The notes below the pieces were generated by a model that searched no databases, had not been told where the DNA came from, and was given only the letters and a program-made list of their open reading frames with translations. DNA of 32,000 nt. Source: Erysipelotrichaceae bacterium. GTDB taxonomy: Bacteria > Bacillota_I > Bacilli_A > Erysipelotrichales > Erysipelotrichaceae. The stretch lies in contig OY781039.1 in the NCBI GenBank assembly GCA_963676105.1, positions 1,320,001-1,352,000 on the forward strand, in the 5' to 3' direction. A program made the translations under genes and the position numbers. Shown here piece after piece: positions 28,893 through 29,063 of the stretch. The number at the start of each line of letters is the position of its first letter. Position 1 is the first letter of the stretch.

Positions 28893-28914
28893 ACAAAAAA
28901 CACCTACAGGTGCT
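28893..28914 (-). terminator. Leader terminator (expression platform of the S-box-like element)
   Basis: In minus sense it reads AGCACC-UGUA-GGUGUU followed by UUUUGUUU, about 20 nt before the RBS of the 127-aa gene. Confidence 0.55.
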
Positions 28915-28931
28915 TCTGTTAAAAGAGGTCA

Positions 28932-29018
28932 CCTATCTTCTAAGGTTGGAGCACCTTAACAATGTAGTTAGGTTGCTGCAAGGTCACTGAGCCTTATCTC
29001 TCGCTTGCTCTTAATAGG
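28932..29018 (-). promoter_or_regulatory. S-box / SAM-I-clan-like riboswitch aptamer candidate
   Basis: Minus sense: CCUAU-UAAGA-GCAAG-CGAGAGAUAAGGCUCAGUGAC-CUUGC-A-GCAACC...AAGGUGCU-CCAACCUUAGAAG-AUAGG. The S-box landmarks AAGAG, GAGrGA, UGA, GCAACC, GGUGC and AGAUArG appear in the canonical order. P1, P2 and P3 can be paired. P4 is apparently missing. Confidence 0.5.
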
Positions 29019-29033
29019 ATGTTTATTGCGTTT

Positions 29034-29063
29034 ATTATAAATTCATAAAACATATGTTGGCAA
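29034..29063 (-). promoter_or_regulatory. SigA-type promoter of the leader/macro operon
   Basis: Minus sense TTGCCA-N18-TATAAT, about 20 nt upstream of the proposed P1. Confidence 0.5.

Follow-up and report, generated by a model that had tools for sequence, protein, structure and literature searches.

The 32,000-nucleotide (nt) stretch of an Erysipelotrichaceae bacterium analysed here (contig OY781039.1, positions 1,320,001 to 1,352,000; hereafter the window) carries on its minus strand a leader upstream of an operon that starts with a gene for a 127-amino-acid (aa) protein. Comparison with known RNA families indicated that the element in this leader is very probably a transcription-terminating S-adenosylmethionine (SAM)-I (S-box) riboswitch in a natural form without the P4 helix. 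The RF00162 (SAM) model matched 29020..28913 with 51.4 bits against a gathering cut-off of 44.4 (E = 3.4e-9 for the whole window), and this was the sole above-threshold Rfam 15 match across the 32-kb window. Other members of the same Rfam clan overlapped with lower scores and SAM-I stayed the best match in clan competition. The initial annotation, which had called the element S-box-like within the SAM-I clan and had proposed covariance models as the check, was thereby borne out. The strongly conserved SAM-I core was retained (AAGAG, GAGrGA, UGA, GCAACC, GGUGC and AUAGG), with the UAU of P1 and its AUA partner intact. P2 showed a sequence pattern that fits a kink-turn (K-turn), a CGA bulge with GA...UGA, whose A, G, G, A and A columns were invariant or near-invariant in the alignment described below (A3). 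Overall, the analysis established the family membership, the P4-less architecture with its covariation, the conservation of the expression platform and the linkage to a gene family.

The absence of P4, for which the initial annotation had seen no room in the window, was also found in related leaders (loci are given by their L numbers). The linker that runs from P3 to the 3' strand of P1 measured 12 nt in the window; 12 of the 14 leaders of the same gene family, which were retrieved via the protein and thus without pattern bias, had 10-12 nt at this place. The exceptions were L005 and L067, with a linker of 23-26 nt and a P4 of 4-5 base pairs (bp). In eight of nine homologue loci the leader was complete or lacked no more than its first bases, and the SAM element was found by Infernal in all 8. 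The RF00162 scores at homologue leaders ranged from 43.2 to 65.1 bits; L001 (43.2) was below the 44.4 cut-off and 8 of the 9 leaders were above it. Infernal dropped P4 in 8 of the 9; among the 8 loci with a complete or nearly complete leader it did so in all but L005, closing P1 at GAUAGG or GAUGGG. The contig of L008 begins inside P3, so that only the 3' half was checkable, and this half fitted the P4-less model R1 (see below) with 32.5 bits.

A pattern search of viral contigs (IMG/VR), with 10-13 nt allowed between GGUGCU and GAURGG, returned 53 loci, 47 of which were clearly of the same aptamer kind, terminators included. Hand-drawn P1, P2a, P2b, P3 and a pseudoknot were tested by pair counts in alignment A3, which holds 42 distinct aptamers. 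Standard pairs filled 95% of the cells, compared with 31-40% when the 3' partners were slid by 1-3 columns. A total of 11 pairs had changed on both sides and none of 500 shuffles reached the observed values. The third P1 pair (columns 12-100) was CG in 15 aptamers, UA in 15 and UG in 12, and the P2b pair 31-40 was GC in 24 and AU in 12. Compensatory changes were also seen in four of the five P2a pairs, three of the four pseudoknot pairs and the distal pairs of P3. The P1, P2 and P3 pairings of the initial annotation were therefore present and supported by covariation; the pseudoknot (U)AAGG/CCUU(A) had been overlooked there. The covariation check that it had proposed on orthologous leaders was positive as well: P1, P2 and the pseudoknot had all changed in a compensatory way, and the pseudoknot read UAAGG/CCUUA, CAGG/CCUG, CAAG/CUUG or UGG/CCA among leaders of the same gene family. 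The aptamer of the window folded alone into exactly P1, P2 and P3. A covariance model without P4 (R1), built from the 42-aptamer alignment, gave the window 78 bits, 27 above the Rfam drawing. Finally, comparison of the window with its closest relative, L007, showed 15 differences among the 113 positions that lie outside the helices, the pseudoknot and the terminator, and none among the 66 positions within them (one-sided Fisher p = 7e-4). Judged by the pair covariation, the linker lengths and the comparison with L007, the aptamer is a conserved three-way junction with a pseudoknot and is under selection.

Three other descriptions of the structure were weighed. Infernal drew the window as a canonical four-way S-box, with P1 formed by AUCCUAUU/AACAGAAG (29020-29013 with 28920-28913) and a P4 (AGAAGAU.../...CCUCUUU) made from downstream sequence. 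This alignment underlies the 51.4-bit match, and the helix that it used as P4, UUAGAAGA/UCUUUUAA (28943-28936 with 28926-28919), is also present in the minimum free energy (MFE) fold and can be drawn in similar form in L001, L003 and L007. However, 3 of the 8 P1 pairs and two P4 pairs are non-standard, the A-U/U-A pairs of P1 would be lost, and no such helix can be drawn in L010, L006, L009 and L096. With Infernal itself deleting P4 and closing P1 at GAUAGG in orthologous leaders, and with the higher score of the P4-less model, the four-way drawing was rejected as highly unlikely. A decaying, non-functional S-box that lost P4 by deletion would also account for the missing P4, the short P1 and the lack of a thermodynamic signal. 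Yet 12 of 14 leaders retain the P4-less form in a gene family whose proteins share as little as 26% identity, compensatory exchanges preserve P1, P2 and the pseudoknot, substitutions from L007 avoid the structured positions (0/66 vs 15/113), and dozens more P4-less examples have intact terminators, all of which leaves a remnant with very little probability. The third description likens the aptamer to SAM-IV or SAM-I/IV, with P4 replaced by a hairpin on the 3' side and by a second pseudoknot (PK-2) that reaches the P3 loop. Weaker overlapping matches of other clan members agree with it, as does a 5-nt complementarity in the window between the terminator loop (UGUAG) and the P3 loop (CUACA). No other PK-2 candidate linking the P3 loop to the 3' tail was found, and this one was rejected as chance: L007 has GACAU in its P3 loop and UGAA in its terminator loop, so that the complementarity is lost, and it is absent in L001 too. 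The element keeps a P2 split into P2a and P2b, a K-turn-like bulge and the first pseudoknot (PK-1), features that mark SAM-I as opposed to SAM-I/IV (PMC6890682), and a SAM-IV-like aptamer is thus extremely improbable.

A misdrawn structure was also observed at L095:2859-2980, where the Rfam alignment took the 3' arm of the terminator, GAUGGGGAG, for the 3' strand of P1 and invented a P4 with a 23-nt insertion. Under the P4-less model, P1 of this element was placed at 2853-2944 with a score of 87.7 bits. The annotation artefact is systematic in the P4-less subgroup (window and L095), as Rfam passes these elements only with a misdrawn P1 and P4, and annotators may mistake the 3' arm of a terminator for P1.

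The P4-less riboswitch is followed by an expression platform that is conserved in orthologous leaders. The pairing AUAGGUG/CACCUGU is mutually exclusive with P1 and with the terminator, and the layout GAUAGGUG...CACCU...AGGUGUUUUUU (AGGUG to U-run) is common to these leaders. The terminator stem is unchanged in L007, where the loop and one flanking base differ, and is conserved in other leaders too. Constrained folding gave -28.6 kcal/mol for the form with P1 and terminator and -29.0 for the antiterminator form, near-degenerate energies that fit what a switch needs. The ligand-OFF terminator design put forward in the initial annotation agrees with this conservation and with the near-isoenergetic folds, and we infer the same OFF logic. 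The junction of P1, P2 (with its K-turn-like bulge) and P3 is locked by the usual pseudoknot, which joins the P2b loop to the linker that follows P3. In the proposed mechanism, SAM, when plentiful, would bind between P1 and P3 and stabilise the short 6-bp P1; the AUAGG strand would then be held in P1, the GCACC/GGUGU terminator would form and transcription would end upstream of the 127-aa gene. At low SAM, AUAGGUG would pair with CACCUGU, no terminator would form and the operon of the 127-aa, 163-aa and macro-domain genes would be transcribed. The operon would accordingly behave as a module induced by low SAM.

Several observations weigh against a functional SAM-sensing switch of this kind. 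P1 has only 6 pairs, one of them U-G, and the terminator stem is short, for which reason a simple consensus scanner missed the terminator. SAM affinity drops as P4 shortens (PMC12714719). Thermodynamic folding of the leader gave no signal (MFE z-score -0.24), and stability by itself is therefore uninformative. The competing MFE helix UUAGAAGA/UCUUUUAA holds the 3' strand of P1 in its loop; it could tune the switch or be incidental. The pattern used to collect viral loci fixed CAGCAACC, GGTGCT and GATRGG, to which the invariance of these columns is due in part of the 42-aptamer set, while the 5' partners were free. The J3/4 segment is CCAA in the window and L007, whereas at least 90% of the relatives have AA as its first two bases. 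Finally, nothing in the Pfam and NCBIfam annotation of the downstream genes connects them with sulfur or SAM metabolism. Placement before genes of methionine, cysteine or SAM metabolism or transport is customary for the class and not a requirement of structure.

The gene context would be explained if the aptamer had diverged to another ligand, such as S-adenosylhomocysteine (SAH), a compound related to ADP-ribose or NAD, or another SAM derivative, an alternative that the initial annotation had raised. A gene context unrelated to methionine, cysteine or SAM metabolism, the absent P4 and a J3/4 of CCAA rather than AAnn in the window and L007 are in line with it, and changed specificity is known from variant riboswitches of other classes. 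Against it, no conserved position of the SAM-I consensus core is altered. The deviations listed in the initial annotation as altered invariant positions (GAGAGA and GGCUC) do not reflect a changed pocket but a compensatory G-C to A-U swap in the middle P2b pair. The A-U/U-A pairs of P1, J1/2 AAGAG and P3 GCAAC/GGUGC are present in the window and invariant in A3, with 3' halves partly fixed by the search pattern and 5' halves free. In SAM-I crystal structures these elements include SAM contacts, and P4 makes no contact with the ligand. In addition, the same P4-less aptamer type is found upstream of metK in L018, L025, L026 and L042, and metK also follows short-P4 aptamers in L072 and L088. With the core kept and P4-less relatives preceding metK, the altered-ligand alternative found no support and is unlikely; for the same two reasons the ligand is, with good probability, SAM.

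The conserved target of the riboswitch was examined in the homologue loci. A SAM-I element was found upstream of the 127-aa homologue in every locus with upstream DNA, down to 26% identity. Three distant homologues that were looked up (32%, 28% and 26% identity) each stood behind a SAM-I match, and their leaders, which scored 58.9 bits (L096), 61.6 bits (L095) and 56.2 bits (L099) with RF00162, were all P4-less on inspection. In L099 the homologue comes third in the gene order, with a sigma-70-family gene ahead of it. A profile of the 127-aa family also matched, at E = 2.4e-7 among about 70 proteins, an open reading frame (ORF) of 196 aa that follows a short-P4 S-box in L067 and L083. The initial annotation had described a macro-domain operon under riboswitch control; a macro gene does belong to the operon in the window, but it is not the conserved target and varies among loci. 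It lies behind the 127-aa homologue only in the window, L001, L002 and L008, whereas elsewhere the homologue is followed by GntR and ABC genes (L003), AraC (L005), MazG-like and helicase genes (L006) or no co-oriented gene (L010). Since the riboswitch stays with the first gene whatever follows, the conserved regulatory partner, as read from these gene orders, is an orphan family of about 125 aa and not the macro gene. The position of the gene, behind a SAM sensor in all loci checked, argues that the function of the 127-aa family is almost certainly tied to SAM or methionine supply. The value of the riboswitch therefore lies in pointing to an orphan family that has neither annotation nor a detectable structural relative, as the RNA is ordinary for its class.

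The genes behind the first one differ between related loci. The window (22608..28876) and L001 share the order 127 aa, about 160 aa, macro, VWA, about 283 aa, Sel1 and about 245 aa, while in L003 GntR/ABC genes replace this cargo behind a 129-aa homologue with similar flanks (MatE upstream; DUF8091 and pseudouridine synthase downstream). From such comparisons, the site looks like a variable island with varying cargo. A further arrangement was observed at L099:215-2000, where a P4-less S-box stands at the head of an operon with genes for a 126-aa protein, a 238-aa sigma factor of the sigma-70 family and a distant homologue (152 aa) of the 127-aa protein. This layout would place a sigma factor under SAM control.

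The features of the leader and the three genes of the operon are listed in Table 1. Every sequence element read in the initial annotation was found in its place on the minus strand, including the TTGCCA-N18-TATAAT promoter. Both promoter hexamers are identical or nearly so in L007, and the sequence would place an active promoter here with a transcription start near 29027. The terminator stem can be extended by AGAA/UUUU pairs.

Table 1. Features of the leader and of the three genes of the operon in the window.
Feature	Position	Strand	Remarks
Predicted promoter, sigma-70-type, TTGCCA-18-TATAAT	29063..29034	-	11/12 consensus matches; top promoter-like site in 24000..32000 (8 kb scanned)
-35 TTGCCA	29063-29058	-	18-nt spacer, then -10 TATAAT at 29039-29034
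SAM-I (S-box) aptamer, three-way junction without P4	29018..28932	-	RF00162, P4-less model and pair counts
P1, 6 bp, CCUAUU / GAUAGG	29018-29013 / 28937-28932	-	Read from sequence
J1/2 AAGAG	29012-29008	-	Last G (29008) doubles as first G of P2a
P2a, GCAAG / CUUGC	29008-29004 / 28982-28978	-	Read from sequence
K-turn-like CGA bulge; AGUGAC	29003-29001; 28988-28983	-	Inside P2
P2b, GAG / CUC, loop AUAAGG	29000-28998 / 28991-28989	-	Read from sequence
P3, AGCA-A-CCUAAC / GUUA-A-GGUGCU	28977-28950	-	Read from sequence
Linker from P3 to 3' strand of P1, 12 nt, CCAACCUUAGAA		-	J3/4 position; too short for P4
Pseudoknot 5' strand (U)AAGG, in P2b loop	28996-28992	-	Pairs with CCUU(A)
Pseudoknot 3' strand CCUU(A), in 12-nt linker (J3/4)	28945-28941	-	Pairs with (U)AAGG
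Antiterminator, AUAGGUG / CACCUGU	28936-28930 / 28912-28906	-	Includes 3' strand of P1; read from sequence
Intrinsic terminator, stem GCACC / GGUGU, loop UGUA	28913-28909 / 28904-28900	-	U-run to 28895
Shine-Dalgarno AGGAGG; first-gene ATG	28886-28881; 28876-28874	-	Strong ribosome-binding site
127-aa protein gene	28493..28876	-	No family match; conserved regulated gene
163-aa protein gene	28005..28496	-	Start overlaps stop of 127-aa gene (ATGA)
327-aa macro-domain protein gene	27022..28005	-	Start overlaps stop of 163-aa gene

The 127-aa protein had no match in Pfam, PHROGs, PADLOC or NCBIfam, and a sequence-profile search of the PDB gave nothing better than E = 0.025. Its AlphaFold model was confident, with a predicted local distance difference test score (pLDDT) of 90.8 and a predicted template modelling score (pTM) of 0.85. 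A Foldseek search with the model against PDB and BFVD showed no structural neighbour (best E = 0.3, TM below 0.3), and the protein may, as far as the model goes, represent a new fold. The conserved residues of the family are mostly Asn, Gln and Arg (NFN..ENQ, RNYG and YNLN). Only 9 homologues were found among 5.8 billion proteins; an exhaustive HMMER search gave 9 cluster representatives among 1.8 billion and thereby added eight more distant ones. Bacterial genomes sampled at one per species held a single relative, in an Erysipelotrichaceae metagenome-assembled genome that is also the nearest syntenic genome, and no relatives were found in viral contigs. Homology between the 127-aa family and phage proteins of about 100 aa was considered and is not claimed, the hhalign match (probability 19%, E = 1.2e-3, 30 columns) being a hint only.

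The 163-aa protein had no match in Pfam, PHROGs, PADLOC or NCBIfam. It had two homologues only and its structure model was unusable (pLDDT 34). In the 327-aa protein, the macro domain covers residues 19-134 (Pfam PF01661, E = 4e-27), and the C-terminal part of about 190 residues (about 135-327; window 27022..27600) had no Pfam or NCBIfam family match. All matches of this protein to the NCBIfam models for ADP-ribose-binding and O-acetyl-ADP-ribose deacetylase proteins were below the cut-offs. A reading of the 163-aa and macro genes as a DarT/DarG-like toxin-antitoxin or defence pair was not supported, PADLOC giving no match.

The viral pattern search showed 47 P4-less S-boxes with terminators in phage-like IMG/VR contigs (L013-L062; e.g. 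L014:2428-2904 and L049:2764-3265). The genes behind them encode proteins of about 100 aa without a family match, MetK (L018, L025, L026 and L042) and other orphan proteins. Neighbouring genes in L014 and L049 include ParB-methyltransferase fusions, a second DNA methyltransferase, a SNF2-type helicase, a small terminase subunit and a serine integrase. A tblastn search with the L014 methyltransferases found homologues of one in 22 of the 47 loci, of the other in 19 and of at least one in 27, with 0.1-3.4 kb between the riboswitch and the closer end of the match; a homologue of the terminase small subunit was present in 21 of the 47. At L014:2428-5068 the riboswitch and a 98-aa ORF (plus strand, ending at 2904) converge on a gene for a 724-aa DNA methyltransferase (minus strand, 5068..2894) and overlap its 3' end. 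Read-through at low SAM would here run antisense to the methyltransferase mRNA, which recalls an S-box case in Clostridium acetobutylicum taken up below. A literature search returned nothing relevant on SAM-I riboswitches in phages or beside methyltransferases, which is weak evidence of novelty as many journals lay outside its coverage.

The recurrence of this aptamer type near phage DNA methyltransferases and before phage metK suggests, by association, that mobile elements may monitor the SAM pool of the host. It is conceivable, and we put it forward only tentatively, that SAM-I riboswitches with a reduced or absent P4 mark an unrecognised low-SAM regulon on mobile DNA of Bacillota, which would comprise phage-like contigs (metK and orphans of about 100 aa) and chromosomal variable islands (the 127-aa family, accompanied in the window by a macro-domain protein). 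If so, the small proteins would newly join the factors that keep SAM in balance or that act when it runs short, and the 127-aa protein would be a new fold tied to SAM biology. They might then, for instance, back up methylation-dependent protection or respond when SAM is depleted in phage-host conflict.

A tandem repeat was observed beside the promoter at 29116..30106 of the window, with a period of 359 bp, 2.8 copies and 84% matches. It occupies a gene-free gap of about 1 kb between a GGDEF gene and the riboswitch promoter. On the minus strand the repeat units carry a 39-aa ORF (29235..29354, 29594..29713 and 29952..30071), whose product combines a hydrophobic core with a basic tail, and a 41-aa ORF, and on the plus strand a promoter-like AGGACA-16-TACAAT at 29121, 29480 and 29839. 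The repeat resembles tandem modules of small peptide and antisense RNA of the type I toxin-antitoxin kind; Rfam ctRNA matches were not significant.

Among known systems, the element shares with SAM-I/S-box riboswitches (RF00162), e.g. the leaders of yitJ in Bacillus subtilis and metF in T. tengcongensis, the core, P1, the K-turn-like P2, P3, the pseudoknot and the OFF design with terminator and antiterminator. It differs from typical members in lacking P4, with a three-way instead of a four-way junction, and in a P1 of only 6 bp. SAM-IV (RF00634) and SAM-I/IV (RF01725) belong to the same clan and have a similar binding core with P4 not inside the junction. SAM-IV needs P5 and PK-2, and SAM-I/IV lacks PK-1 and a split P2 and has P4 outside the junction (PMC6890682); both compensate with a 3' hairpin and PK-2, whereas the window element keeps PK-1 and a K-turn-like P2. 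In C. acetobutylicum an S-box drives an RNA that is antisense to the ubiG operon, as cited in PMC2258182; this is a precedent for an S-box outside simple repression of biosynthesis genes and may bear on the phage loci. In contrast to that case, the riboswitch of the window is co-directional with coding genes that have a strong ribosome-binding site, and there is no antisense arrangement.

The P4-less architecture is not new, as natural RF00162 members without P4 have been published. In the RF00162 alignment, P4 deletion is the leading mode of variation and natural members without P4 exist, including an Actinomycetota group with a very short P4 or none (PMC12714719). SAM aptamers can work without P4, and designed P4-less aptamers responded to SAM (PMC12714719). 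The present set differs from that Actinomycetota group in coming from low-GC Bacillota-like genomes and phage-like contigs, in using intrinsic terminators and in controlling orphan genes. In C. difficile, SAM-I riboswitches precede only genes of methionine and SAM metabolism and transport (PMC11477304), whereas the window element heads an orphan 127-aa gene and a macro-domain gene and no methionine, cysteine or SAM genes. Overall, the P4-less form of SAM-I is already known, and it is the regulon that departs from the textbook picture.

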